DNA of 14,568 bases, from the IMG/VR virus record IMGVR_UViG_2537562019_000027; one strand, written 5' to 3'. Under the pieces are notes generated by a model that was not told the origin of the DNA, made no database searches, and worked only from the letters and a program-made list of their open reading frames with translations. Below, one piece after another: positions 1-14,568 of the stretch (position 1 is its first letter; each line of letters begins with the position of its first letter). The stretch comes from a virus. Taxonomy: Duplodnaviria; Heunggongvirae; Uroviricota; Caudoviricetes. The position numbers were made by a program, and so were the translations under genes.

Positions 1-467
<467 letters not shown>

Positions 468-564
468 TTAGTTTTTTTATTCGCATAAAGAATATACTTA
501 ATAATATATACAGTAAGAACCATTAGTAACGATAACCCTGCTATCAGCTCAGTGATGTAGATAG

Positions 565-834
565 TCATTGCTTCATCTCCCTTTCCATTTCATCAATGTC
601 AACGTCATCAGGAAGATGGGAGCAATACGCCGCTATACCATGATGATTTATCTCATACCCTTTGAACGTTACCATCTGGCGCGTAATCTCAACTTCGTTC
701 AGGAATCCGTCATCGCATAACTGCCTGGCTATTTTCGATTTGGTCTGGATTATTGGTAGTGCCTGTTCTTTCAAAGCGCATGATATTTGTGCATCCCATG
801 CCTTTTCGAGAATGGCTAATTGTTTTTTATTCAT
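565..834 (-). CDS. Hypothetical phage protein (89 aa), translationally coupled to the helicase gene
   Basis: ORF with ATG overlapping the helicase stop (TGATG at 836-832); no family recognised. Confidence 0.55.
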   Translation of the reverse strand: MNKKQLAILEKAWDAQISCALKEQALPIIQTKSKIARQLCDDGFLNEVEITRQMVTFKGYEINHHGIAAYCSHLPDDVDIDEMEREMKQ

Positions 835-2270
835 CAGAATCCTCCTTTCTTCTTGGACTGCGGTTCCTCGCGTTCACGTCGGCGCATTTCAGCAGACTGT
901 TGGTCTGTGTCATAAATAGCGCCATTTGCCTGAATGCAATACACCGTGCCGGTATTGCCATGACGATTGAGGCGAAGGATTAGTTCGGTTTCACCAGGAG
1001 GAACGCTGTCATCAAAAGCACCTTCACGATGGATCCCCACCCAATAATCGCAATCCTGTTCAATCTGCCCTGTATCTCGTGAGTCACTTGGTAATGGGCG
1101 TTTATTGGTTCGGCTTTCCAGTGCGCGGTTAAGCTGTGTCAGAAGCACAACAACGCAATCAAGCTCTTTGGCAAGGTTCTTCAGTCCTTTGGTGATCATG
1201 CCGTAAGCAAGGTCGTTGCGATCGGCCTTTTCAGCGGTCATTAGTGTCAGGTAATCGACCAGAATCATGCCAACACATCCTTTTTCTCGCTTGATTCGAC
1301 GGCTTTCGCTGACGATTTGAGCCAGAGATAATCCCGGCGTGTCGTCGATGTAAAGCAGGTCGATTTCACTCAAGCGATTGGCTGTTTCGATCGCCCTGTT
1401 GAAGTCACCATCGTAATCACCCTGATAGCCGTCATCAGCGTCATTTGTCGCCGGAAGGTAAAAAATATTCGGGTTAACACCTGACTTCTGTCCTACCAGT
1501 TTTTCCAGTATCTGGTCACCGGGCATTTCAAGGCTGAACATCAGAGCGGGCTTTTTCTCATGCACTGCGCAGTTGATTGCCATCTGGCTGTATAGCGTCG
1601 TTTTCCCCATCTTAGGGCGAGCGCCAATGACAAACAGAGAGCCTTTCACCAGACCTTTCGGTGACAGCATCCTGTCCAGCGATGGGATCCCTGTGCTCAT
1701 TCCCCGTTGTTCGCCTGATGGGTCAAATCGCTTCTCAAGGTCGCTAACCCAGTCTTCCATGACCTCGCCAAATGAGCGAAGGCCGCGACGCGATCCGGTT
1801 TTTGCATGGTCTGTCAGTTGCGTGAAAATCGCCTGAATAGCTTCGTACTTCTGCGTCGCAGTCATTCCGTTGCGGGAATAGAGCAATTCCGTCGCTTCAG
1901 TCATGCGGTTGATGGCGTAGCGTTCCATTGCGGTTTCGCGAACCTGCATTGCATAGGCAACGATGTTTGCGGCGCTCGGCGTGTTCTTTGCGATCTCAGC
2001 GATATAAGCAAAACCGCCAACAGACGCCGTTAACGATTTACGCTCCAGTTCATCGAAAAGCGTCAGGCCATCTACTGGCTTTTGCTCCCGGTGCATTCTG
2101 GTTATTTCTTCGAAAAGGATTTTGTGTGATCGGCTGTAAAATGAATCAGGCTTCAGCATCGCCAGAACTTTCTGGACGCGCTCACTGCTGTCATCATCCA
2201 GAAGCAATCCACCAATCACCGCCTGCTCTGCCTCGATGCTATGGGGCGGCGCATAAAAATTATCGGTCAT
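834..2270 (-). CDS. DnaB-family replicative DNA helicase (P22 gp12-like)
   Basis: 478-aa ORF with Walker A GARPKMGKTT and DnaB-like layout. Start taken as ATG at 2270-2268 (MTDNFYAPP...); the ORF track extends to a GTG at 2285. Sits immediately downstream of the O-like gene. Confidence 0.9.
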   Translation of the reverse strand: MTDNFYAPPHSIEAEQAVIGGLLLDDDSSERVQKVLAMLKPDSFYSRSHKILFEEITRMHREQKPVDGLTLFDELERKSLTASVGGFAYIAEIAKNTPSAANIVAYAMQVRETAMERYAINRMTEATELLYSRNGMTATQKYEAIQAIFTQLTDHAKTGSRRGLRSFGEVMEDWVSDLEKRFDPSGEQRGMSTGIPSLDRMLSPKGLVKGSLFVIGARPKMGKTTLYSQMAINCAVHEKKPALMFSLEMPGDQILEKLVGQKSGVNPNIFYLPATNDADDGYQGDYDGDFNRAIETANRLSEIDLLYIDDTPGLSLAQIVSESRRIKREKGCVGMILVDYLTLMTAEKADRNDLAYGMITKGLKNLAKELDCVVVLLTQLNRALESRTNKRPLPSDSRDTGQIEQDCDYWVGIHREGAFDDSVPPGETELILRLNRHGNTGTVYCIQANGAIYDTDQQSAEMRRREREEPQSKKKGGF

Positions 2271-3150
2271 CGTGTTCACCCTCACGAACTTTCAGGTAGG
2301 TATTATCGTTAAGCAGGAAATCAAATCCCTTTTTGTGCCAGACGGTTCCTCGCTGATGGTTTGGGCGCTCTTCGAACATCCATCGGCAATTTTCGCCTAC
2401 GTATCTCAAATAATTTCTCCAGTCCTGCATCGTGAACCCATGCCCGTCAAGCTGGCGGGTTATCACTCCGGCTTTGCGCCAGAACGTTCGGATCTGGTTT
2501 TTACGCTTGTCATTCAGTGCGCGGATTCTTGGCGCTTCAGGAAGGATTTCGTGGTAAGCATCGACAACATCCTGACAGCTAACGGAAGGTTTTTTCTTGT
2601 CAGACTTTTTGTCTGCTGTGGCACTCTCTAATACGTCAGTATTAGAGATATTATTTATATTATTGTTTATGGACAACCGTTGGACAACCGTTGGACAATC
2701 TCCGCTGAGAGCCTCGCCATTACTGGTGTTTGCGTTGGACAACCGTTGGACAACCGTTGGACAATTTTTTGCCTGAAAATCGTCATATTTAACGATTGTA
2801 AACAGGCTAAATTTCTTCCCCATCGAGCAAATATTAAGCATCCCTTTCGACTCAAAAGTCCGTAATAAGCTCCGAACTTTGTTGTCGGGGATGAATGTTT
2901 CTCTGACCAGCGACGGGCGTCCAGTTATCATCTGACCGCGATCAACAGTTATCGGCCCGATATCCGTATTGACGACAGTAGATTCGTGATTAGCCTTGAG
3001 GATTAAGTGAAGCCAAAGATGTACTGCCTGAGAGTCCTTATAGAGCCTGCTGTCCATAAACTGGCGGTGTATATAGGCATACCCCATACTGGATGCCTCC
3101 TGATGTTGTACAGGGTTATGCCTGTAATCAGCTAACTTAACGACGCCCAT
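2260..3150 (-). CDS. Replication initiator, lambda O-like (iteron-binding), with the origin inside the gene
   Basis: 296-aa ORF directly upstream of and overlapping the helicase gene; contains two clusters of tandem 11-bp iterons plus AT-rich flank, as for lambda ori within O. Confidence 0.75.
   Translation of the reverse strand: MGVVKLADYRHNPVQHQEASSMGYAYIHRQFMDSRLYKDSQAVHLWLHLILKANHESTVVNTDIGPITVDRGQMITGRPSLVRETFIPDNKVRSLLRTFESKGMLNICSMGKKFSLFTIVKYDDFQAKNCPTVVQRLSNANTSNGEALSGDCPTVVQRLSINNNINNISNTDVLESATADKKSDKKKPSVSCQDVVDAYHEILPEAPRIRALNDKRKNQIRTFWRKAGVITRQLDGHGFTMQDWRNYLRYVGENCRWMFEERPNHQRGTVWHKKGFDFLLNDNTYLKVREGEHDDR
2668..2765. repeat. Replication origin iterons: two clusters of 3 tandem copies of GTTGGACAACC, with AT-rich flanks
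   Basis: Tandem copies at 2671-2699 and 2734-2765, separated by about 35 bp; AT-rich stretches at 2641-2670 and 2765-2815. Confidence 0.8.
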
Positions 3151-3298
3151 GTTTCACTCCTGCTTTGGCTAGTCTGTAAACACCAACAAGGCGCTCTGCG
3201 AACGCCCTGTTATTTGCTGCGGCTACCACTAATCCCTCAGGTGAATCAGGGTGTCGAATCTCTTCTTTTTCCTGGTATTTCTTACGACGTTTTGTCAT
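3137..3298 (-). CDS. Small hypothetical protein (53 aa) between cII-like and O-like genes
   Basis: ATG at 3298-3296 preceded by AGGAG at 5-nt spacing; stop just inside the O-like start region. Translation MTKRRKKYQEKEEIRHPDSPEGLVVAAANNRAFAERLVGVYRLAKAGVKHGRR. Not in the ORF track (under 60 aa). Confidence 0.45.
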   Translation of the reverse strand: MTKRRKKYQEKEEIRHPDSPEGLVVAAANNRAFAERLVGVYRLAKAGVKHGRR

Positions 3299-3330
3299 AA
3301 TTACTCCTGTGGATTGATCCAGTAATTCCC

Positions 3331-3627
3331 TCAGAATTGCATATCAATTTGCTTAAAATCCTCGGTGGCGGCCGGGGATTTTTTCTTTGTGATTTCATCA
3401 AGCGCATACTTAAAAGCCCTGCTAATTGGACTGATGTCTGATGCCATTCCGAAAGCACACAAGACCGAAGCAATAAACCGCCAGTCCGTTCTGCTTATCT
3501 TCGATTCATGACAACCAATCATCTTTGCCAGACCGCGCTGAGTAAGCGTTGACAGGTTGATAAGTAAATCTGTTTCAGCGCGATCAACGTCACGCTGTGT
3601 TGGCTTGCTGTAGCTTGCTTGTGCCAT
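3331..3627 (-). CDS. cII: CII-like transcriptional activator (P22 C1 / lambda CII family)
   Basis: 98 aa; C-terminus KKKSPAATEDFKQIDMQF resembles lambda CII ...KKRPAATERSEQIQMEF; located after cro and nutR as in lambdoid phages. Confidence 0.75.
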   Translation of the reverse strand: MAQASYSKPTQRDVDRAETDLLINLSTLTQRGLAKMIGCHESKISRTDWRFIASVLCAFGMASDISPISRAFKYALDEITKKKSPAATEDFKQIDMQF

Positions 3628-3660
3628 TTGTTAATTTTCCTATATTGATATTGAGTTATA

Positions 3661-3685
3661 GCGGCACACCCAATGGATTTGCCGC
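3661..3685 (-). terminator. Hairpin between nutR and cII (tR1-like candidate)
   Basis: Inverted repeat GCGGCA...TGCCGC with 6-bp stems; no clean U-run, so a rho-dependent or weak terminator at best. Confidence 0.3.
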
Positions 3686-3694
3686 TGATGTTTG

Positions 3695-3735
3695 CTCACC
3701 CGGTTAGAGGTGAAAGGCCAGAACTGTTAAAGAGC
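3695..3735 (-). promoter_or_regulatory. nutR: boxA (GCTCTTTAACA, minus strand 3735-3725) and boxB hairpin (3714-3695)
   Basis: boxA matches the consensus and is identical to the nutL boxA; boxB stem TCACC/GGTGA with a loop containing CUAACC, shared with the nutL boxB loop. Confidence 0.6.
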
Positions 3736-3742
3736 AATTTGC

Positions 3743-3928
3743 TTATGCCGCTTGGCGGTAAGCACTTTCTTGATACTTCAGGGCGCCAGCTGTAACGATT
3801 TCCAATCGATAGGCGTCTTTCTCTGGGATAACTTCTTTCCACTGAGAGACTGCTGCATCGCTAATGCCTAGTGCTTTAGCAACAGCACGCTGGGTTCCGA
3901 AGTGGTCAATAACATCTTTTTTGTACAT
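3743..3928 (-). CDS. cro: Cro repressor (P22 Cro-like)
   Basis: 61 aa, MYKKDVIDHFGTQRAVAKALGISDAAVSQWKEV..., which I recognise as near-identical to P22 Cro; divergent from c2 across an operator region. Confidence 0.9.
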   Translation of the reverse strand: MYKKDVIDHFGTQRAVAKALGISDAAVSQWKEVIPEKDAYRLEIVTAGALKYQESAYRQAA

Positions 3929-4008
3929 AGACTCGCTCCGAAATTAAAGAACACTTAAATTATCCACCAAAGGAATCTTAAGTCAAGTTTATTTAAGATG
4001 TCTTAACT
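3929..4008. promoter_or_regulatory. OR/PR/PRM region with P22-type palindromic operators
   Basis: Minus-strand PR: TTGACT (3986-3981), 17-bp spacer, ATAATT (3963-3958), GGAG before the cro ATG. Operator-like palindromes ATTAAAGAACACTTAAAT (3943-3960), around 3969-3989, and ATTTAAGATGTCTTAACT (3991-4008). Confidence 0.7.
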
Positions 4009-4659
4009 ATGAATACACAACTGATGGGTGAGCGTATTCGCGCTCGCAGAAAAGAACTCAAGATTAGGCAGGCTGCCCTTGGCAAGATGGTTGGCGTGTC
4101 TAATGTTGCTATTTCCCAATGGGAGCGATCTGAAACTGAGCCCAATGGCGAAAACCTATTGGCCTTAGCCAAGGCTTTGCAGTGCTCCCCTGATTACCTG
4201 TTGAAAGGAGAGGATAGTCTTTCAAACATTGCCTATCACAGCAGGCATGATCCAAGAGGTTCGTATCCTCTAATTAGTTGGGTAAGCGCAGGATGTTGGA
4301 TGGAAGCTGTAGAGCCATATCATAGGCGTGCAATAGATAACTGGTACGACACAACGGTAGATTGTTCTGAAGACTCTTTTTGGCTCGACGTTAAAGGCGA
4401 TTCAATGACTGCCCCGGCAGGACTGAGTATTCCTGAGGGGATGATTATTCTCGTCGACCCAGAAGTCGAACCACGTAATGGAAAGCTGGTAGTCGCCAAA
4501 CTTGAAGGGGAAAACGAGGCGACATTCAAAAAGTTAGTTATTGATGCCGGTAGAAAATTCCTGAAACCACTCAATCCACAATACCCAATGATTGAAATCA
4601 ATGGGAACTGTAAAATCATTGGCGTTGTCGTTGATGCCAAGCTAGCAAACCTTCCTTAA
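4009..4659 (+). CDS. c2: C2/CI-type prophage repressor (HTH plus LexA-like S24 peptidase domain)
   Basis: 216 aa, MNTQLMGERIRARRKELKIRQAALGKMVGVSNVAISQWERSE...GDSM...K, which I recognise as near-identical to P22 C2; start abuts the operator (leaderless-like). Confidence 0.95.
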   Translation: MNTQLMGERIRARRKELKIRQAALGKMVGVSNVAISQWERSETEPNGENLLALAKALQCSPDYLLKGEDSLSNIAYHSRHDPRGSYPLISWVSAGCWMEAVEPYHRRAIDNWYDTTVDCSEDSFWLDVKGDSMTAPAGLSIPEGMIILVDPEVEPRNGKLVVAKLEGENEATFKKLVIDAGRKFLKPLNPQYPMIEINGNCKIIGVVVDAKLANLP

Positions 4660-4679
4660 GGGGCTTTCGCCCCTTTTTT
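4660..4679 (+). terminator. Rho-independent terminator after c2
   Basis: GGGGC-TTTC-GCCCC followed by TTTTTT immediately after the c2 stop. Confidence 0.75.
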
Positions 4680-4723
4680 ATTTCCCGTTAAAAATCAAAG
4701 ACAAACTAAATTCACGCCCATAA

Positions 4724-4778
4724 AATTAAGTTTTCTTCAAAAATGCACTTGACCAATAAATTAAGAAGTCTTAAATTT
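4724..4778 (+). promoter_or_regulatory. OL/PL: promoter TTGACC-17-TAAATT overlapped by P22-type operator palindromes
   Basis: TTGACC at 4749-4754, TAAATT at 4772-4777; operator-like AATTAAGAAGTCTTAAATT (4759-4777) and AATTAAGTTTTCTTCAA (4724-4740). Confidence 0.6.
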
Positions 4779-4823
4779 AAGCCATCAGCAGGACGCTGGA
4801 AGCCAAACGGAACAGATTGGCAG

Positions 4824-4863
4824 GCTCTTTAACATCGACGGACTCTCAACCTAACCGTTGAGA
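4824..4863 (+). promoter_or_regulatory. nutL: boxA (GCTCTTTAACA, 4824-4834) and boxB hairpin (4844-4863)
   Basis: boxB is TCTCAAC-CTAACC-GTTGAGA, a 7-bp stem with 6-nt loop; lies between pL and N. Confidence 0.65.
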
Positions 4864-4973
4864 CCAGAACTTGAGTGGTTTTGGGGATGGCGCGAATTGC
4901 AGCTGCAAGACAGCGATCGAGAAGATAAGCACCTCGACGCGTCATGCGCCAAAGCCACTTAAAGGAGACCATC

Positions 4974-5279
4974 ATGGTAACCATTGTCTGGAAAGAATCC
5001 AAAGGTACGGCAAAAAGCCGCTACAAAGCTCGCAGAGCAGAACTTATTGCCGAGCGACGCAGTAATGAAGCACTGGCGCGAAAAATTGCGCTAAAGCTCT
5101 CTGGTTGCGTCAGAGCAGACAAAGCAGCATCACTAGGAAGCCTTTGCTGCAAGAAGAAAGAAGAAGTCGTTCGAAAAAATAGAAGTATTTATTACAAAGA
5201 TTCAAACCCGTTAGGAAACAAAATTCATGCAGTCCAAAAAATAAAATTGTACAGTAAACTACCGTACGGTGCTTATTGA
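4974..5279 (+). CDS. N: Antitermination protein N (phi21-type arginine-rich motif)
   Basis: ATG at 4974 with AGGAG 6 nt upstream; N-terminal GTAKSRYKARRAELIAERR is the arginine-rich boxB-binding motif I recall for phage 21 N; positioned after pL/nutL. Confidence 0.8.
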   Translation: MVTIVWKESKGTAKSRYKARRAELIAERRSNEALARKIALKLSGCVRADKAASLGSLCCKKKEEVVRKNRSIYYKDSNPLGNKIHAVQKIKLYSKLPYGAY

Positions 5280-5281
5280 GT

Positions 5282-5620
5282 ATGCTTATGGTGAAAAAGA
5301 CTATTTATGTTAATCCTGACCGCGGACAAAACAGAAAAGTATCTGATAGAGGTCTTACATCTCGAGACAGGAGGAGAATAGCGAGATGGGAAAAAAGGAT
5401 AGCATATGCATTAAAAAACGGTGTAACACCTGGATTTAATGCTATAGATGACGGTCCTGAATATAAAATTAATGAAGAACCAATGGACAAAGTTGACAAA
5501 GCATTAGCAACACCATTTCCTCGCGATGTCGAAAAAATTGAAGATGAAAAATATGAGGATGTAATGCACAGAGTTGTTAATCACGCTCACCAACGAAATC
5601 CAAATAAAAAATGGTCATAG
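5282..5620 (+). CDS. Hypothetical protein (about 110 aa), low-GC moron gene; start uncertain (ATG 5282 or 5288)
   Basis: ORF in an AT-rich segment immediately after N, followed by a strong terminator; weak SD; no family recognised. Confidence 0.45.
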   Translation: MLMVKKTIYVNPDRGQNRKVSDRGLTSRDRRRIARWEKRIAYALKNGVTPGFNAIDDGPEYKINEEPMDKVDKALATPFPRDVEKIEDEKYEDVMHRVVNHAHQRNPNKKWS

Positions 5621-5641
5621 CCCACTTCGGTGGGTTTTTTA
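5621..5641 (+). terminator. Rho-independent terminator
   Basis: CCCAC-TTCG-GTGGG followed by TTTTTT, directly after the stop of the 5282-5620 ORF. Confidence 0.65.
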
Positions 5642-5656
5642 TTGTCTGAACAAATC

Positions 5657-5745
5657 TAATTTACTACCGCAAGCCACGCAGTGAAATGGGTGTGACTTGT
5701 GTTGGTCGCCAGAAAATGAAATTAGGCAGCAAACCACTTATTTGA
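5657..5745 (+). other. Diverged second copy of the N gene 3' end (no start codon); probable recombination remnant
   Basis: In-frame translation YRKPRSEMGVTCVGRQKMKLGSKPLI* parallels the C-terminus of the N ORF (YYKDSNPLGNKIHAVQKIKLYSKLPYGAY*), with nucleotide similarity (CAAAAAATAAAATTGTACAGTAAAC vs CAGAAAATGAAATTAGGCAGCAAAC). Confidence 0.5.
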
Positions 5746-5753
5746 GGTGAGAT

Positions 5754-6224
5754 ATGACAAAATCATGGAGCGTACCTTTTCCTGAATCAGAAACTGAACA
5801 TGATGGAATGCCTGTTTTCTGGAGATTCCAGGCGACAGTTGAAGAAGATGGGATAAAAATATTCGCACTTCAATATATAGCTTTTCATCAGACAGAGCAT
5901 TATGCATGGTTGGTTCCTGCGCATTGGATTGTTGATTTTAAACCAGCACCAAATCAGTGGTTACAGGAATGGAAACAAAAGAGAAATAGATATGCAATTA
6001 AGAAAGTAGCAAAAAATGCAGAAAGATCTTTTGCATTCCCAACGAAGAAACTTGCCATTGAAAGTTTATTGCGCCGGAAGAAATACCATTTAATGAGAAT
6101 CAAACAAGATTTGGCTGTTGTATCAACTCTTGTTGATGGGATGAAGAATATTGATACATCAACACCAGATATTGAATATAACTTTGGGCACAACCAAGAA
6201 ACAGAAAATTGGGTATTTTATTAG
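5754..6224 (+). CDS. Hypothetical protein (156 aa), low-GC moron gene
   Basis: ATG with GAGGTGAG SD; AT-rich codon usage; no family recognised; no obvious transmembrane segments. Confidence 0.6.
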   Translation: MTKSWSVPFPESETEHDGMPVFWRFQATVEEDGIKIFALQYIAFHQTEHYAWLVPAHWIVDFKPAPNQWLQEWKQKRNRYAIKKVAKNAERSFAFPTKKLAIESLLRRKKYHLMRIKQDLAVVSTLVDGMKNIDTSTPDIEYNFGHNQETENWVFY

Positions 6225-6418
6225 TACGAGTAAGCACTGTGTATTCATTCCAACGAGTGAATACACGGAGCAATGTCGCTCGTAACTAAACAGGAGCCGA
6301 CTTGTTCTGATTATTGGAAATCTTCTTTGCCCTCCGATGTGGGGGGCTTTTTATATGCATACCAATAACGCTTCACTCGAGGCGTTTTCGTTATGCAATC
6401 AAACAGAAGGAGCATCCT

Positions 6419-6589
6419 ATGCAACAGTTCGCTATTGCAGGGGCGGCATCGGTTCGCCCTTTCAACCCGATTTTATCGGTACAGCATTCACGAAAAAATA
6501 TTTTAACCGGAGCAGACTTTAAACAACCAAGAATGAAAAGCTTGCTCGAAAAGCTTTGGGATATTTTGAAACAACAAGGCCGTCCATGA
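6419..6589 (+). CDS. cIII: CIII-like protein (FtsH inhibitor family, lambda CIII homolog)
   Basis: 56 aa, AAGGAG SD; MQQFAIAGA...SLLEKLWDILKQQGRP resembles lambda CIII MQYAIAGW...SLLERITRKLRDGWKRLIDILNQPGVP. Confidence 0.7.
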   Translation: MQQFAIAGAASVRPFNPILSVQHSRKNILTGADFKQPRMKSLLEKLWDILKQQGRP

Positions 6590-6744
6590 GTTTTACAGAT
6601 AACTGGTCAGACGAAGAATTCATTCGTCAGATGAAAGAATTAATCGGTAACGAAGGAGATATTCATGTCACTTGCAACCACAGTGAAGGAGAGCAAGTTA
6701 CAGAGACGCATGTACACGCAGAAAGCTCTCTGGTATCGCCATAA
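6586..6744 (+). CDS. Small hypothetical protein (52 aa), in the kil-like position after cIII
   Basis: ATGA start/stop overlap with cIII; MSFTDNWSDEEFIRQMKELIGNEGDIHVTCNHSEGEQVTETHVHAESSLVSP; function inferred only from position. Confidence 0.4.
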   Translation: MSFTDNWSDEEFIRQMKELIGNEGDIHVTCNHSEGEQVTETHVHAESSLVSP

Positions 6745-6843
6745 TGGCGACCGCGAAGGAATGCGGGTATGCCTTAATTTGTCCCGAGTCGAAGTATTAA
6801 ATCAGCGTTATTTCCTTGGGCCGTGTCCATTCTGAGGTGAATT

Positions 6844-7551
6844 ATGGATTTGAATAAATTCGATGAGCCATTCAGCCCTGAAGATATCGAATGGCGAATA
6901 CAGCAAAGCGGTAAAACACGCGATGGCAAGGTGTGGGCTATGGTGCTGGCTTATGTCACGAACCGGGCAATCATGAAACGCCTGGACGATGTTTGCGGCA
7001 AAGCAGGATGGCGCAATGAATACCGCGATATTCCCAACAACGGCGGCGTTGAATGCGGCATATCAATAAAGATTGATTCCGAATGGGTAACCAAATGGGA
7101 TGCTGCTGAAAACACGCAGGTAGAAGCCGTCAAAGGTGGTCGTTCAGGTGCAATGAAGCGCGCTGCCGTTCAGTGGGGAATCGGTCGGTATCTGTATAAC
7201 CTTGAGGAAGGTTTCGCACAAACATCTCTCGATAAAAAGCAGGGATGGCACAGGGCAAAACTCAAGGATGGAACAGGATTTTACTGGCTCCCTCCATCGC
7301 TGCCGGGATGGGCAATACCAGCATCAGATAACAAACCATCACCAGAAAATACCAACCAGAAATCTCCATCGGTTGACTGCGAACAAATCCTGAAAGACTT
7401 CAGCGATTATGCGTCAACAGAAACTGACAAGAAAAAACTCATCGAGCGTTATCAGCGTGACTGGCAATTAATGGCTGGCAACGAGGAGGCGCAGGCTAAA
7501 TGCGTTCAGGTAATGAACATCAGAGTTAACGAACTAAAACAGGCGGCATAA
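6844..7551 (+). CDS. Rad52/Sak-family single-strand annealing protein (phage recombinase)
   Basis: 235 aa with GAGGTG SD; GGRSGAMKRAAVQWGIGRYLY motif is characteristic of Rad52/22-family annealing proteins; sits in the recombination module. Confidence 0.75.
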   Translation: MDLNKFDEPFSPEDIEWRIQQSGKTRDGKVWAMVLAYVTNRAIMKRLDDVCGKAGWRNEYRDIPNNGGVECGISIKIDSEWVTKWDAAENTQVEAVKGGRSGAMKRAAVQWGIGRYLYNLEEGFAQTSLDKKQGWHRAKLKDGTGFYWLPPSLPGWAIPASDNKPSPENTNQKSPSVDCEQILKDFSDYASTETDKKKLIERYQRDWQLMAGNEEAQAKCVQVMNIRVNELKQAA

Positions 7552-8019
7552 ATGTCTCACTTGGACGGAATTATTAAAAGATTCGAGTCCAGCTACAAAG
7601 TTAATGAAACAACAGGTTGCTGGGAGTCTACCTATTCAAAAAACAAAGGAGGATACACAAAATTTGTAGCCTTTGGCGTAACAATGCTTTCTCATCGGGT
7701 TGCTTTTGAGCTTTATCACTCCCCCATTCCATCTGGGAAGATGGTTTGCCACAAATGCGATAACCCATGCTGCGTTAATCCTGAACATCTCTTTTTAGGT
7801 AGCGCGCAAGAAAACATGGACGACAAGATAGCAAAAGGAAGGCATCGTGGAGCCAAGAAAGGTCATGCTCATCATGGTGCAAAATTAACAGAGTGGCAGG
7901 TTATAGAAATTAGGAAAAGACTCTCTGAAAAAGAGAGTCAGTACAAGATAGCAAAAGACATGGGTGTATCTCAATCAATTATAAGCAACATAAAAACTGG
8001 CAAGAGGTGGAGCAAATGA
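7552..8019 (+). CDS. HNH endonuclease (free-standing, homing-endonuclease-like)
   Basis: 155 aa; [26 protein letters not shown] is an HNH motif with cysteine zinc ligands; C-terminal HTH-like tail; coupled to flanking genes by TAAATG and ATGA overlaps. Confidence 0.8.
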
Positions 8020-8522
8020 GTTCTCGCGGGATAAATAAGGTGATTATCCTTGGTCGGGTAGGACAAGACCCGGAAGTTCGATACTCACCATCAGGAACAG
8101 CGTTCGCTAACCTGACAATAGCCACGTCAGAACAATGGCGAGATAAAAATACTGGCGAGCAAAAGGAATTGACTGAATGGCATCGTGTTGCTGTATCCGG
8201 GAAACTGGCTGAGGTCGTGGGGCAGTATGTGAAAAAAGGTGATCAGATTTATTTCGAGGGAATGCTGAGAACCAGAAAGTGGAAAGACCAGTCAGGGCAA
8301 GACCGTTACACAACCGAGGTTCATGTCGGAATTAATGGCGTGATGCAAATGCTTGGCGGCATTGGCGACAGCAAACAACAAGCAGCCAGCAGGCAATCAC
8401 AGAAGCCACAGCAGCAATCATCACCAGCACAACACAACGAACCTCCGATGGATTTTGACGACGATATACCCTTTGCACCAGTAACTCTCCCCTTCCCTCG
8501 TCACGCTATTCACGCAATTTAA
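8016..8522 (+). CDS. ssb: Single-stranded DNA-binding protein (SSB) with a C-terminal extension past the DDDIPF tip
   Basis: OB-fold N-terminus [29 protein letters not shown]..., Gln/Pro-rich linker, acidic tip MDFDDDIPF followed by 15 extra residues ([15 protein letters not shown]); start ATG 8016 with GAGGTGG SD. Confidence 0.9.
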
Positions 8523-8530
8523 GGACTTAC

Positions 8531-9079
8531 ATGAATCACTTAATGGTTGACCTTGAAACAATGGGCAACGGGCCATACGCGCCAGTTATTTCTATTGGGG
8601 CGGTATTCTTTGACCCGAATACCGGAGAAACAGGAGAAGAGTTCTCGGTAAATATCTCGCTTGAGTCATCAATGCGATATCGGGCGCGTCCTGACGCTTC
8701 AACGATTTTATGGTGGATGGAACAGAGTGAAGAAGCCAGAAAATCGCTAACCAGCAACACTCAAGAGCTTTCAACAGCTCTTTCATGGTTATCTGAATTC
8801 ATCATAAAGAACGCTAACCACAAATTCGTTCAGGTTTGGGGGAATGGAGCATCATTTGACTGCGTTATTCTCCGCAACAGTTATTCGCTGACAGGGCAGC
8901 CAGTTCCGTGGCAGTGGTGGAATGACCGCGACGTAAGAACAATCGTCGAGCTTGGAAAGGTAATAGGATTCGACCCTAAGCGAGATATGCCATTCAAAGG
9001 AACTCGCCACAACGCGCTTGATGATGCCATCCACCAAGCCAAATACGTTTCAGCGATCTGGAAAAAGTTAGCTAAATAA
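8531..9079 (+). CDS. DnaQ-like DEDDh 3'-5' exonuclease
   Basis: 182 aa; Exo I MVDLET, Exo II FDC, Exo III HNALDDA; AAGGA SD. Confidence 0.75.
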   Translation: MNHLMVDLETMGNGPYAPVISIGAVFFDPNTGETGEEFSVNISLESSMRYRARPDASTILWWMEQSEEARKSLTSNTQELSTALSWLSEFIIKNANHKFVQVWGNGASFDCVILRNSYSLTGQPVPWQWWNDRDVRTIVELGKVIGFDPKRDMPFKGTRHNALDDAIHQAKYVSAIWKKLAK

Positions 9080-9095
9080 TCAACCGGAGAAAAAC

Positions 9096-9389
9096 ATGCC
9101 AGCGCCTTTGTATGGTGCGGATGACCCGCGCCGCTGTTCCGGCAATTCTGTATCGGAGGTGCTGGATAAATTCAGAAAAAACTACGATCGAATAATGTCT
9201 CTACCGCAGGAAACGAAAGAGGAAAAGGAATTTCGCCACTGTATATGGCTTGCAGAGAAAGAAGAACGCGAGCGAATTTACCAGACATCAATCCGACCAT
9301 TCCGCAAAGCCACATATACCCACTTCCCTGAAATTGACCCGCGCCTGCGTCATTACCGCTCACGCTATGGCGCTATCAGTAATGACTGA
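9096..9389 (+). CDS. Hypothetical phage protein (97 aa)
   Basis: ATG with GGAG SD; tightly packed with neighbours; no family recognised. Confidence 0.55.
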   Translation: MPAPLYGADDPRRCSGNSVSEVLDKFRKNYDRIMSLPQETKEEKEFRHCIWLAEKEERERIYQTSIRPFRKATYTHFPEIDPRLRHYRSRYGAISND

Positions 9390-11929: not shown

Positions 11930-12207
11930 TGGACTCCTTCGCGAAATATACAATTATTGACTGGATAGCCTTCCTTCAGGTTTTGCTCATCTGGTTTTAT
12001 ATGGCTTACAGGAGTGGACAGTGGATTGTCAGTGTAGCCTGTAGCAAGGGATGGCGTTGGTGGAACAGAAAGAATAAAAAAGCACTGGCATTGGATTCGT
12101 TTTACGAAGCATTCAATCTTAACAGCCTTCAGCCTGGTTCTGTCATTGTAGTCACCACTCAAAGCGGCATGACCATTCAGATTCATAAACCAAAAGAGGA
12201 AAAATGA
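11929..12207 (+). CDS. Hypothetical protein (92 aa) with hydrophobic N-terminal segment
   Basis: TAATG overlap with upstream gene; IIDWIAFLQVLLIWFYMAY is a likely transmembrane helix. Confidence 0.5.
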   Translation: MDSFAKYTIIDWIAFLQVLLIWFYMAYRSGQWIVSVACSKGWRWWNRKNKKALALDSFYEAFNLNSLQPGSVIVVTTQSGMTIQIHKPKEEK

Positions 12208-12293
12208 TGTGGCCTATATGTGTTAATTGCGGACGGATGTGCCTATCTGGATGGTGCCGAAAGTGCGACAAATGCACGAAGAAAAGACAATAA
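12204..12293 (+). CDS. Candidate Cys-rich micro-protein (29 aa)
   Basis: ATG overlapping the upstream stop; MMWPICVNCGRMCLSGWCRKCDKCTKKRQ has six Cys in CxxC-like spacing. Speculative. Confidence 0.3.
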   Translation: MMWPICVNCGRMCLSGWCRKCDKCTKKRQ

Positions 12294-12365
12294 CAATCCT
12301 CGCACTCGCGGGGATTTCTTTTATCTGAACTCGCTACGGCGGGTTTTGTTTTATGGAGATGATAA

Positions 12366-12533
12366 ATGCACTTCCGAGTCACAGGTGAATGGAATGGAGA
12401 GCCATTCGACAGGGTCGTCGAAGCAGAGGGCATCAACGACTGCTATAACCACTGGATGATATGGGCGCAGATAGCGCATGCAGACGTAACCAATATTCGA
12501 ATTGAAGAACTGAAAGAACACCAAGCCGCCTGA
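12366..12533 (+). CDS. Hypothetical small protein (55 aa)
   Basis: ATG with GGAG SD; stop codon sits in the loop of the following terminator hairpin; MHFRVTGEWNGEPFDRVVEAEGINDCYNHWMIWAQIAHADVTNIRIEELKEHQAA. Confidence 0.5.
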   Translation: MHFRVTGEWNGEPFDRVVEAEGINDCYNHWMIWAQIAHADVTNIRIEELKEHQAA

Positions 12534-12546
12534 TGGCGGTTTTTTA
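12526..12546 (+). terminator. Rho-independent terminator
   Basis: CCGCC-TGAT-GGCGG followed by TTTTTT. Confidence 0.6.
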
Positions 12547-12555
12547 TTGCCTGAT

Positions 12556-12571
12556 TTGCAGGTTCGATTCC
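12556..12571 (+). other. 16-nt segment matching an internal part of the tRNA-Arg (argW-type) 3' half
   Basis: TTGCAGGTTCGATTCC equals the T-stem/T-loop part of the argW sequence as I recall it (...AATTGCAGGTTCGATTCCTGCAGGGGACACCA); it diverges immediately afterwards. Confidence 0.45.
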
Positions 12572-12590
12572 CTATTCGGAGATAGCACTC

Positions 12591-12791
12591 ATGCAACACG
12601 AACTACAGCCTGATTCACTGGTTGATTTGAAATTCATCATGGCCGATACTGGCTTTGGTAAAACCTTCATCTACGACCGGATTAAGTCCGGCGACCTGCC
12701 AAAAGCCAAAGTTATCCACGGGCGAGCAAGATGGTTATATCGTGACCATTGTGAATTCAAAAATAAGCTCTTAAGCCGCGCCAATGGGTAA
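12591..12791 (+). CDS. torI: Excisionase / recombination directionality factor TorI (AlpA/Xis family)
   Basis: 66 aa, MQHELQPDSLVDLKFIMADTGFGKTFIYDRIKSGDLPKAKVIHGRARWLYRDHCEFKNKLLSRANG; I recognise this as KplE1 TorI; GGAGA SD; at the prophage end next to att. Confidence 0.85.
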   Translation: MQHELQPDSLVDLKFIMADTGFGKTFIYDRIKSGDLPKAKVIHGRARWLYRDHCEFKNKLLSRANG

Positions 12792-12864
12792 AATAGCGGG
12801 TAAAATATTTCTCACATCTAAAAAACACCATTCTAATCAATCCCCTGCCGCGTCAAGTAGATGT

Positions 12865-12879
12865 CTGCAGGGGACACCA
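12865..12879 (+). other. attR core candidate: copy of the last 15 nt of tRNA-Arg (argW-type), CTGCAGGGGACACCA
   Basis: Matches the acceptor 3' strand, discriminator and CCA of argW as recalled; 74 bp downstream of torI; flanked by inverted repeat TCCCCTGC / GCAGGGGA. Confidence 0.55.
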
Positions 12880-13267
12880 GATACCCTTCAAACGAAATCT
12901 ACCTTCACCCCGTAAAAGATGGGTTTGGCAGCACACTTGCCTTATATCTACTCATTTTTACTGCAACAGGTTGAAATCTCAGCACTGTCAGAAAGCGCTG
13001 ATGACTAAACAGCCCTGGGCCGGGCGATGTAACCATCACACAGAATCCTGATAGCGAAATATGGCGTGACTCGATACTTCACTCCGCAATGCATTCCTTG
13101 ATGAATTCGCAGGACCGTGATACACGGGACAGGTCACTGAATGACGACAATGTCCTGGAAATCAGCGAACCGCGCATCTGAAGTACATTTGAGCGACTGT
13201 ACCAGAACATGAATGAGGCGTTTGGATTAGGCGATTATTAGCAGGGCTAAGCATTTTACTATTATTA

Positions 13268-13311
13268 TTTTCCGGTTGAGGGATATAGAGCTATCGACAA
13301 CAACCGGAAAA
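13268..13311. terminator. Hairpin downstream of cscB (possible terminator)
   Basis: Inverted repeat TTTTCCGGTTG ... CAACCGGAAAA with 11-bp arms; no clean U-run on the cscB transcript side. Confidence 0.35.
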
Positions 13312-13320
13312 AGTTTACGT

Positions 13321-14568
13321 CTATATTGCTGAAGGTACAGGCGTTTCCATAACTATTTGCTCGCGTTTTTTACTCAAGAAGAAAATGCCAAATAGCAACA
13401 TCAGGCAGACAATACCCGAAATTGCGAAGAAAACTGTCTGGTAGCCTGCGTGGTCAAAGAGTATCCCAGTCGGCGTTGAAAGCAGCACAATCCCAAGCGA
13501 ACTGGCAATTTGAAAACCAATCAGAAAGATCGTCGACGACAGGCGCTTATCAAAGTTTGCCACGCTGTATTTGAAGACGGATATGACACAAAGTGGAACC
13601 TCAATGGCATGTAACAACTTCACTAATGAAATAATCCAGGGGTTAACGAACAGCGCGCAGGAAAGGATACGCAACGCCATAATCACAACTCCGATAAGTA
13701 ATGCATTTTTTGGCCCTACCCGATTCACAAAGAAAGGAATAATCGCCATGCACAGCGCTTCGAGTACCACCTGGAATGAGTTGAGATAACCATACAGGCG
13801 CGTTCCTACATCGTGTGATTCGAATAAACCTGCATAAAAGACAGGAAAAAGTTGTTGATCAAAAATGTTATAGAAAGACCACGTCCCCACAATAAATATG
13901 ACGAAAACCCAGAAGTTTCGATCCTTGAAAACTGCGATAAAATCCTCTTTTTTTACCCCTCCCGCATCTGCCGCTACGCACTGGTGATCCTTATCTTTAA
14001 AACGCATGTTGATCATCATAAATACAGCGCCAAATAGCGAGACCAACCAGAAGTTGATATGGGGACTGATACTAAAAAATATGCCGGCAAAGAACGCGCC
14101 AATAGCATAGCCAAAAGATCCCCAGGCGCGCGCTGTTCCATATTCGAAATGAAAATTTCGCGCCATTTTTTCGGTGAAGCTATCAAGCAAACCGCATCCC
14201 GCCAGATACCCCAAGCCAAAAAATAGCGCCCCCAGAATTAGACCTACAGAAAAATTGCTTTGCAGTAACGGTTCATAAACGTAAATCATAAACGGTCCGG
14301 TCAAGACCAGGATGAAACTCATACACCAGATGAGCGGTTTCTTCAGACCGAGTTTATCCTGAACGATGCCGTAGAACATCATAAATAGAATGCTGGTAAA
14401 CTGGTTGACCGAATAAAGTGTACCTAATTCCGTCCCTGTCAACCCTAGATGTCCTTTCAGCCAAATAGCGTATAACGACCACCACAGCGACCAGGAAATA
14501 AAAAAGAGAAATGAGTAACTGGATGCAAAACGATAGTACGCATTTCTGAATGGAATATTCAGTGCCAT
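13321..14568 (-). CDS. cscB: Sucrose:H+ symporter CscB (LacY-family oligosaccharide permease)
   Basis: Complete 415-aa ORF, start ATG at 14568-14566; MALNIPFRNAYYRFASSYSFLFFISWSLWWSLYAIW... with the 12-TM LacY-like pattern; I recognise it as E. coli CscB. Confidence 0.9.
   Translation of the reverse strand: MALNIPFRNAYYRFASSYSFLFFISWSLWWSLYAIWLKGHLGLTGTELGTLYSVNQFTSILFMMFYGIVQDKLGLKKPLIWCMSFILVLTGPFMIYVYEPLLQSNFSVGLILGALFFGLGYLAGCGLLDSFTEKMARNFHFEYGTARAWGSFGYAIGAFFAGIFFSISPHINFWLVSLFGAVFMMINMRFKDKDHQCVAADAGGVKKEDFIAVFKDRNFWVFVIFIVGTWSFYNIFDQQLFPVFYAGLFESHDVGTRLYGYLNSFQVVLEALCMAIIPFFVNRVGPKNALLIGVVIMALRILSCALFVNPWIISLVKLLHAIEVPLCVISVFKYSVANFDKRLSSTIFLIGFQIASSLGIVLLSTPTGILFDHAGYQTVFFAISGIVCLMLLFGIFFLSKKREQIVMETPVPSAI

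Follow-up and report, generated by a model that had tools for sequence, protein, structure and literature searches.

The window analysed here, the whole stretch of 14,568 nt, covers the right-hand end of a P22-like prophage, one with the known KplE1/HK620/Sf6 IntS-TorI module (Table 1). Positions 12300-13300 are 100% identical to three E. coli chromosomes, including that of the O114:H49 strain 90-9280, and the prophage in the matching genome spans ~43 kb, with the window as its right end. The attL side can be read in NZ_CP024240, which is identical to the window across the same interval: ~43 kb upstream, the left prophage end consists, in order, of yfdC, a tRNA-Arg(CCT) gene, the phage P' arm, and intS. 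The tRNA gene is complete (GTCCTCTTAGTTAAATGGATATAACGAGCCCCTCCTAAGGGCTAATTGCAGGTTCGATTCCTGCAGGGGACACCA); argW ends there with ...GGGCTAATTGCAGGTTCGATTCCTGCAGGGGACACCA and is followed by TTTATCAGTTCG... and then intS. The end of the prophage opposite the window of this genome thus retains an intact argW together with the P' arm and intS, and in the window the gene for the recombination directionality factor (RDF), torI/hkaC, lies immediately upstream of attP/attR.

The remainder of the window is prophage on one side and bacterial chromosome on the other. It opens (positions 1-345; locus L006, 7024-8046) within istA of a copy of IS100, an IS21-family element, that has the prophage replication genes on one side and the nin region on the other and lies beside truncated genes; the prophage may be defective. 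On the host side we find the csc sucrose-utilisation genes (cscB, cscK, cscA, cscR), which replace dsdC and most of dsdX in the known variable argW-dsdCXA island.

Table 1. Features of the torI-attR region and the adjoining host flank, in window coordinates.
Feature	Position	Strand	Remarks
Intrinsic terminator of the upstream small ORF (12366-12533)	12523..12549	+	stem-loop plus T-run
Upstream tRNA-like piece, TTGCAGGTTCGATTCC	12556..12571	+	equals argW nt 46-61
Family-wide box core, GTTCGATTCC	12562-12571	+	
TorI-binding pentamer in the box, GTTCG	12562-12566	+	
torI Shine-Dalgarno sequence, GGAGAT	12578..12583	+	position-wise conservation
torI, recombination directionality factor (excisionase) and TorR inhibitor	12591..12791	+	66-aa ORF
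Phage part of the functional attR	12768..12879	+	begins at published primer attR-IHF2
Two direct GGGTAAAA repeats (12786..12805)	12786-12793 and 12798-12805	+	
Putative left (C) core half-site, AGTAGATGTC	12856..12865	+	putative role; 37 distinct variants compared
attR core, CTGCAGGGGACACCA	12865..12879	+	equals argW nt 61-75; phage matches stop here
Putative 7-bp overlap, TGCAGGG	12866-12872	+	placed from the inverted repeat
Right half-site, GACACCA	12873-12879	+	
Bacterial flank, csc sucrose locus	12880..14568	.	same flank directly 3' of argW in an independent prophage record
cscB	13321-14568	minus	

Two short segments of the plus strand match argW exactly. The upstream one (TTGCAGGTTCGATTCC, 12556-12571) corresponds to nt 46-61 and the downstream one (CTGCAGGGGACACCA, 12865-12879) to nt 61-75; each is unique in the window and free of mismatches, and we calculate that a perfect 16-nt match would arise ~7e-6 times at random in 2 x 14.6 kb. 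The pieces have one C in common, such that 31 nt of window sequence account for 30 nt of tRNA, and torI (12591-12791) is bracketed in the 293 bp between them. The original prediction was accurate in these respects: both segments are where it placed them, they rebuild the 3' end of an argW-type tRNA (30 nt, nt 46-75, for the ~31 nt proposed), the interval of about 290 bp measures 293 bp and holds the torI ORF, and the argW at attL, which it had named as a check, matches both pieces. ARAGORN identified zero tRNA genes in the window. A tRNA gene or pseudogene with a cloverleaf can be dismissed, since argW is represented just by nt 46-61 and 61-75, separated by 293 bp.

Our comparisons, together with published work on the module, support the downstream piece as the attR core, the site of IntS strand exchange. 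Matches to free phages (HK620, Sf6, N7, Kapi1, and others) all stop exactly at 12879, and the core is shared, as CTGCAGGGGACACCA(T), with the argW 3' end at the phage/host boundary. As a reference for attB, we used vB_EcoS-733R5, an unrelated prophage in whose record argW is joined directly to the flank seen in the window (...ACACCAGATACCCTTCAAACG). For KplE1 the core has been published as CTGCAGGGGACACCAT, the Kapi1 authors give the same integration site, and strand exchange within the core has been published for both KplE1 and Kapi1. The att identity block in this strain is 15 nt, not 16, and the same 15 nt are annotated in K-12 as the pseudogene pawZ. The end of phage homology, the published core, and the argW at attL all agree with the assignment of this piece to the attR core, as had been predicted.

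The record that served as attB reference shows argW being used in the reverse sense by a different prophage (ON470608; 1000-1035 and 42253-42327). Its 441-aa integrase lies directly against the 5' side of the tRNA. Bacterial argW nt 1-27 are retained at the left junction, while argW is complete at the right one, with a phage-supplied 5' part in which position 5 is changed from T to C. The same record contains a gene annotated as a retron-type reverse transcriptase.

Read as the inverted repeat G(A/G)TGTC - TGCAGGG - GACACC, the real core fits the layout of tyrosine-integrase cores, in which two inverted half-sites flank an overlap of 6-8 bp; the repeat suggests an overlap of 7 bp, at 12866-12872. 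In most genera, the 10 nt that precede TGCAGGG in attP and attR also resemble the T-loop. The typical form of this putative left half-site is (A/G)TTCGATGT(A/T), compared to GTTCGATTCC in the tRNA, and the form found in most other genera is TTCGATGTA, compared to TTCGATTCC; across 37 variants, 4-7 of the 10 positions are identical to the tRNA T-loop, against an expectation of 2.5. The E. coli-type half-site has diverged (AGTAGATGTC) and has T-GAT--C in common with the tRNA GTTCGATTCC.

Repeats of GGGTAAAA are found on both arms around the core (window 12786-12805; P' arm in locus L204, 6888-6925), and the HK620 record annotates the equivalent 23 bp of P-arm repeats as an attP repeat. In Emek and phiEt88, GGGTAAAA has become GGGCATAA, both on the P arm and in the copies beside int, a joint change on the two arms that is as expected for arm-type sites co-evolving with the integrase. 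From this pattern we infer that the repeats are the IntS arm-type sites of the P arm.

Several other observations concern the junction. A 43-codon ORF (12784-12915), the counterpart of HK620 hkaB, begins at the end of torI and crosses the attR core; because it runs into host DNA, its 3' part is chimeric in the prophage. Some E. coli chromosomes contain a torI-attP-intS joint, most simply explained by tandem prophages at argW, and several E. coli records of ~30-40 kb that are filed as separate replicons resemble excised circular phage genomes.

The torI product is 100% identical to HK620 HkaC, Sf6 gp18, and K-12 TorI, and its match to the TorI NMR structure (PDB 1Z4H) extends from end to end; the gene bears the name torI in the RefSeq annotation of the matching genomes. 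No Pfam-A match at E <= 1e-3 was found for TorI (12591-12788) or for two of its relatives. TorI is usually placed among the AlpA-type excisionases. The more distant AlpA-type RDFs of the Pseudomonas F116 group were considered as a comparison and set aside, as their RDF and integrase genes are convergent and the gene order differs. The E. coli-type modules differ in what lies further upstream: three or more distinct genes and terminators converge on TTTTTTATT(G/A)CCTGATTTGCAGG just before the upstream tRNA-like piece, which therefore marks the left edge of an exchangeable module.

This upstream 16-mer is identical, along with its neighbouring sequence, in HK620, Sf6, the CUS-3 prophage, and K-12 KplE1. 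Since the free phages HK620 and Sf6 carry it, it was not made at the argW of this host. The module as a whole is no different from that of KplE1 (CPS-53), HK620, Sf6, and CUS-3 at argW, with the same TorI (100%), the same core (CTGCAGGGGACACCA), the same order torI-attP-intS, the same P and P' arm repeats, and the same 16-mer upstream of torI; what differs is the carrier, here another P22-like prophage with IS100 beside its replication genes, and the right flank, which is the csc locus rather than dsdC. The architecture, which had been thought unusual, is therefore the normal one for the KplE1/HK620/Sf6 module, and the suggested comparison with the KplE1 prophage of E. coli K-12 returns the same 16-mer, torI, and core. 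The RDF gene also does not sit inside att sequence, as had been proposed: a 135-bp attR, with its boundary at primer attR-IHF2 (CTCTTAAGCCGCGCCAATGG; window 12768-12787), has been reported to suffice for excision in vitro, and the 16-mer lies 197 bp outside it.

The CUS-3 GenBank record (CP000711) treats the 16-mer itself as the att core, annotating TTGCAGGTTCGATTCC as the core of both attL and attR, and it is indeed a perfect 16-bp direct repeat at the two prophage ends. That record ends 308 bp before the real attR core and consequently omits torI. It is truncated: the CUS-3 prophage of UTI89 runs on through torI to the CTGCAGGGGACACCA core beside dsdC, the CUS-3 attL aligns with HK620 attP-int from the core onward, and all free-phage homology reaches 12879. 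Had the 16-mers served as a recombination site, the products would be a 5' part of argW joined through the 16-mer to torI, and a phage arm joined through the 16-mer to the core, the P' arm, and int. Both are absent, with no contiguous match in 5,426 complete E. coli genomes or in any locus that we fetched, and the reading of the 16-mer as the true core is almost certainly wrong. The repeat has thus misled the annotation of CUS-3 and has been labelled a cII promoter in HK620, and it can mislead prophage-boundary calling at argW.

The view of a single tRNA 3' half cut in two by torI likewise finds no support, because the upstream piece is phage-borne and the attP core bears a T-loop-like half-site of its own. 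Insertion of torI into one long identity block is rejected for the same reason, as it would leave no such half-site at the core. Judging from the sequences, the phage carries two overlapping partial copies of the T-loop region, one contiguous with the crossover site and the other before torI, rather than two halves of one copy. All TorI-family loci that we found (in phage records, IMG/VR, GTDB genomes, and metagenomes) are directed to the same tRNA-Arg(CCU) core, with the metagenome scan yielding solely 100%-identical E. coli-type loci.

We surveyed the sequence that precedes the genes of TorI relatives, drawing on phage records, IMG/VR contigs, and a single genome from each GTDB species. A recurrent layout emerged, consisting of GTTCGATT(C/T)CC, 5-8 nt, GGAGAT, 5-6 nt, and the ATG of the TorI-family gene. 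It is seen in 69 distinct upstream variants from at least seven enterobacterial genera, in phages or prophages of E. coli, Salmonella, Citrobacter, Enterobacter, Serratia, Pantoea, Edwardsiella, and Erwinia; the surveyed sequences are phylogenetically related, and such counts overstate the independent support. The 69 variants hardly differ in the 10-mer or the Shine-Dalgarno sequence, while the 5' flank of the box (TTGCAG-, CCAG-, ACAG-, CCAA-, CCCT-, or CTCA-) and the spacer vary. Across the loci collected (765 kb), we counted 154 occurrences of the 10-mer before torI-family genes, four in argW, and none elsewhere; chance would give 1.5.

The number and form of the copies differ among lineages. 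Prophages of E. coli, Citrobacter, Serratia, Pantoea, and Edwardsiella have one copy (with GATTTCC in Citrobacter), as do the Salmonella Emek/g341c-type loci, whose TorI is 47-52% identical, and Erwinia phage phiEt88, whose TorI is 36-39% identical. Erwinia phage Midgardsormr38 has two exact copies, and in an Enterobacter prophage a degenerate one (GGTTCGATTTC) is preceded by a weaker, partial repeat. Certain relatives have no box at all (Dryocola, Tatumella, several Pantoea, and phages Chronis and EhrS49), and it is therefore dispensable; the Dryocola sequence resembles a clean deletion of ~24 nt between TTGCCTG and the Shine-Dalgarno sequence. The literature that we searched, from which several key papers on the module were absent, contained no description of a conserved box, and a full-text search for the 16-mer returned none; the conservation across the TorI family, shown by these alignments, seems to be new relative to the papers found.

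Could this box be a functionless tRNA leftover? Such a neutral scar might descend from an ancestral attP that had ~30 nt of identity to the tRNA and later received torI and the P arm, or else from a previous integration or deletion at argW. In its favour, the 16-mer agrees with argW nt 46-61 at every position, the two pieces are adjacent when placed on the tRNA, and in Serratia and one Pantoea (BAV) the upstream copy goes on as ..CCTG, with the TG of the tRNA. The Shine-Dalgarno GGA-A is in register with GGACA of the acceptor strand, which hints at a decayed copy, although the 6/14 matches are not significant. That relatives survive without the box, which is hence non-essential, also accords with a scar. 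However, the 10-13-mer is intact even though the adjacent intergenic bases and the protein (47-52% and 36-39% identity) have diverged, and the T-loop-like half-site of the attP core clashes with a single split copy. Furthermore, the base following ..GATTCC is C in most lineages, where the tRNA has T, and no uninterrupted ancestor (phage arm, 30-nt tRNA block, and int) exists among the 5,426 E. coli genomes. A neutral scar is therefore an unlikely account of the box. Of the earlier suggestion that the upstream piece records successive integrations, the origin from tRNA or att sequence remains plausible, and the box probably derives from a second, ancient tRNA/att copy; the conservation of the box goes far beyond that expected of a neutral scar.

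As a conserved element, the box can be compared with known ones. As a fragment of a tRNA at an att site, of which K-12 pawZ is an example, the downstream piece is exactly what would be expected; the upstream piece, in contrast, lies off the junction, is carried by the free phage, and shows the kind of conservation seen in functional elements. Its position invites comparison with the PI promoter and cII box at the start of lambda xis, as it lies at the same place in the map, after a homologous terminator and before the RDF gene. The HK620 record in fact annotates a PI promoter and cII site here; on that reading, TTGCCTGATTTGC would be the cII box, and transcription initiated close to the torI ATG would provide Int but no Xis. 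The prophage encodes a CII-family protein, and a lambda-like phage has a genuine lambda PI cII box (TTGCGTGTAATTGC) in the same place after the same terminator. The likeness of the 16-mer is partial, however: the window has TTGC-N5-TTGC, with a spacing of 5 rather than 6 nt (TTGC-N6-TTGC), and other genera retain GTTCGATTCC and not the TTGC repeats. In addition, we found no sigma-70-like promoter in 12200-13000, a search in which activator-dependent promoters fit the consensus poorly, and hkaC is now known to encode the RDF itself. We regard a cII-dependent promoter as very improbable. The leftmost TTGC of the E. coli 16-mer may nonetheless be inherited from a lambda-type cII box, in which case the family-wide tRNA-like part is 10-13 nt and not 16.

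The joint conservation of the box and the Shine-Dalgarno sequence would be accounted for by control at the RNA level, in which the box of a read-through transcript (GGUUCGAUUCC) pairs with the Shine-Dalgarno sequence and spacer (GGAGAU..AACC) and limits torI translation. RNAalifold predicts exactly this hairpin from 14 diverse sequences, and folds of single sequences recover it too, among them those of E. coli, phiEt88 (-9.2 kcal/mol), and Pantoea BAV (-10.7 kcal/mol). The consensus structure is weak, though, at -3.6 kcal/mol, and the covariation term (+0.12) lends no support; nearly all predicted pairs are invariant and so uninformative. Shuffling gives z-scores from +0.96 to -1.8, the invariant CG of the box is left unpaired in the model, and the Emek-type, Midgardsormr38, and Serratia sequences adopt other folds. 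Such a hairpin thus seems improbable to us. A mimic of the tRNA T arm, or another conserved RNA structure, was rejected on the same grounds of weak energy, zero covariation, and insignificant z-scores.

A protein-binding site on the DNA remains to be considered, and the two recombination proteins are the obvious candidates. If IntS alone were the ligand, the box would be a core-binding site of the B type that occludes the torI start or acts as an accessory attP site in integration. The box equals the 10 nt that abut the putative overlap TGCAGGG in attB, and the conserved 10-12 nt stop at the boundary between the B half-site and the overlap. It shares TT-GAT with the left half-site of attP and is retained in phiEt88, which has the same target tRNA but a different RDF and different arm-type repeats. 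GAGATA, which usually begins 7 nt past the box and is conserved jointly with it as part of the Shine-Dalgarno region, mimics an arrangement of half-site, 7 bp, and half-site in most lineages, in that the region reads as a B-type left half-site, 7 nt, and a weak match to the right half-site. Against this, phage half-sites prefer G(A/G)TGTC, and an operator under selection would be expected to look like them rather than like the weaker B site; there is no arm-type repeat near the box, which is also unnecessary for excision in vitro. Isolated core half-sites are moreover poor binders of lambda-type integrases. We consider a site for IntS only to be quite unlikely.

TorI itself is the other candidate. 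Five TorI sites (I1-I5) are known on attL, and are inactivated by mutation of GTTCG, GATCG, or GTCCG (Panis et al. 2010, PMC2951348). The box has the same GTTCG (12562-12566) in the same orientation, as does the argW T-loop. Unlike the attL sites, the box is located at the opposite end of the prophage, ~300 bp away from the attR core and beside the start of torI. It also differs in number and extent. The TorI sites on attL cluster, whereas the E. coli-type box has a single direct GTTCG, at 12562, and is itself single (only Midgardsormr38 has two exact copies); an inverted CGAAC is found at 12599, within torI. The conserved 10-13 nt of the box are those of the tRNA T-loop, while the attL sites share the pentamer alone, so that TorI binding leaves the invariant ATTCC unexplained. 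Finally, phiEt88 retains the box although its P' arm is without GTTCG-type pentamers and its RDF is 36-39% identical, a pattern that a constraint linked to the integrase or the tRNA fits better than a TorI site.

Taken together, the locus is best described as the attR junction of the IntS/TorI module with, upstream, a phage-borne box that is a candidate regulatory site for torI, and not as a split tRNA; we judge the chances of this description being right to be evenly balanced. The box is a cis-element at the left edge of the module, between the intrinsic terminator and the torI ribosome-binding site, and its copy of the T-loop sequence that flanks the attB crossover (GTTCGATTCC) could serve to control torI expression. 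TorI is a candidate binder because the box contains its published pentamer GTTCG, and IntS a possible one because the box equals the B-side core half-site. As the production of TorI has been reported to be the excision switch, such a site would tune prophage stability.

The recombination system itself is already known, and what lies at this junction is a standard attR of a well-studied module whose core is annotated in K-12 as pawZ; as first written, the finding of a split tRNA has little consequence. The box is of more interest. The KplE1 authors note that the excision switch relies on expression of the RDF gene, in a manner still to be understood. We suggest tentatively, as a possibility that we lean against, that the T-loop box is this missing control of RDF expression in a widespread group of tRNA-integrating phages, with TorI and/or IntS binding a copy of the attB half-site on the torI ribosome-binding region and thereby setting the threshold for excision. 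If this were true, the specificity of TorI for GTTCG would be a specificity for the tRNA T-loop, and the argW T-loop at attL or attB may be an unrecognised RDF site. Found across genera on the translation start region of torI, and containing the TorI pentamer, the box offers a concrete and cheaply testable candidate for the control of excision.
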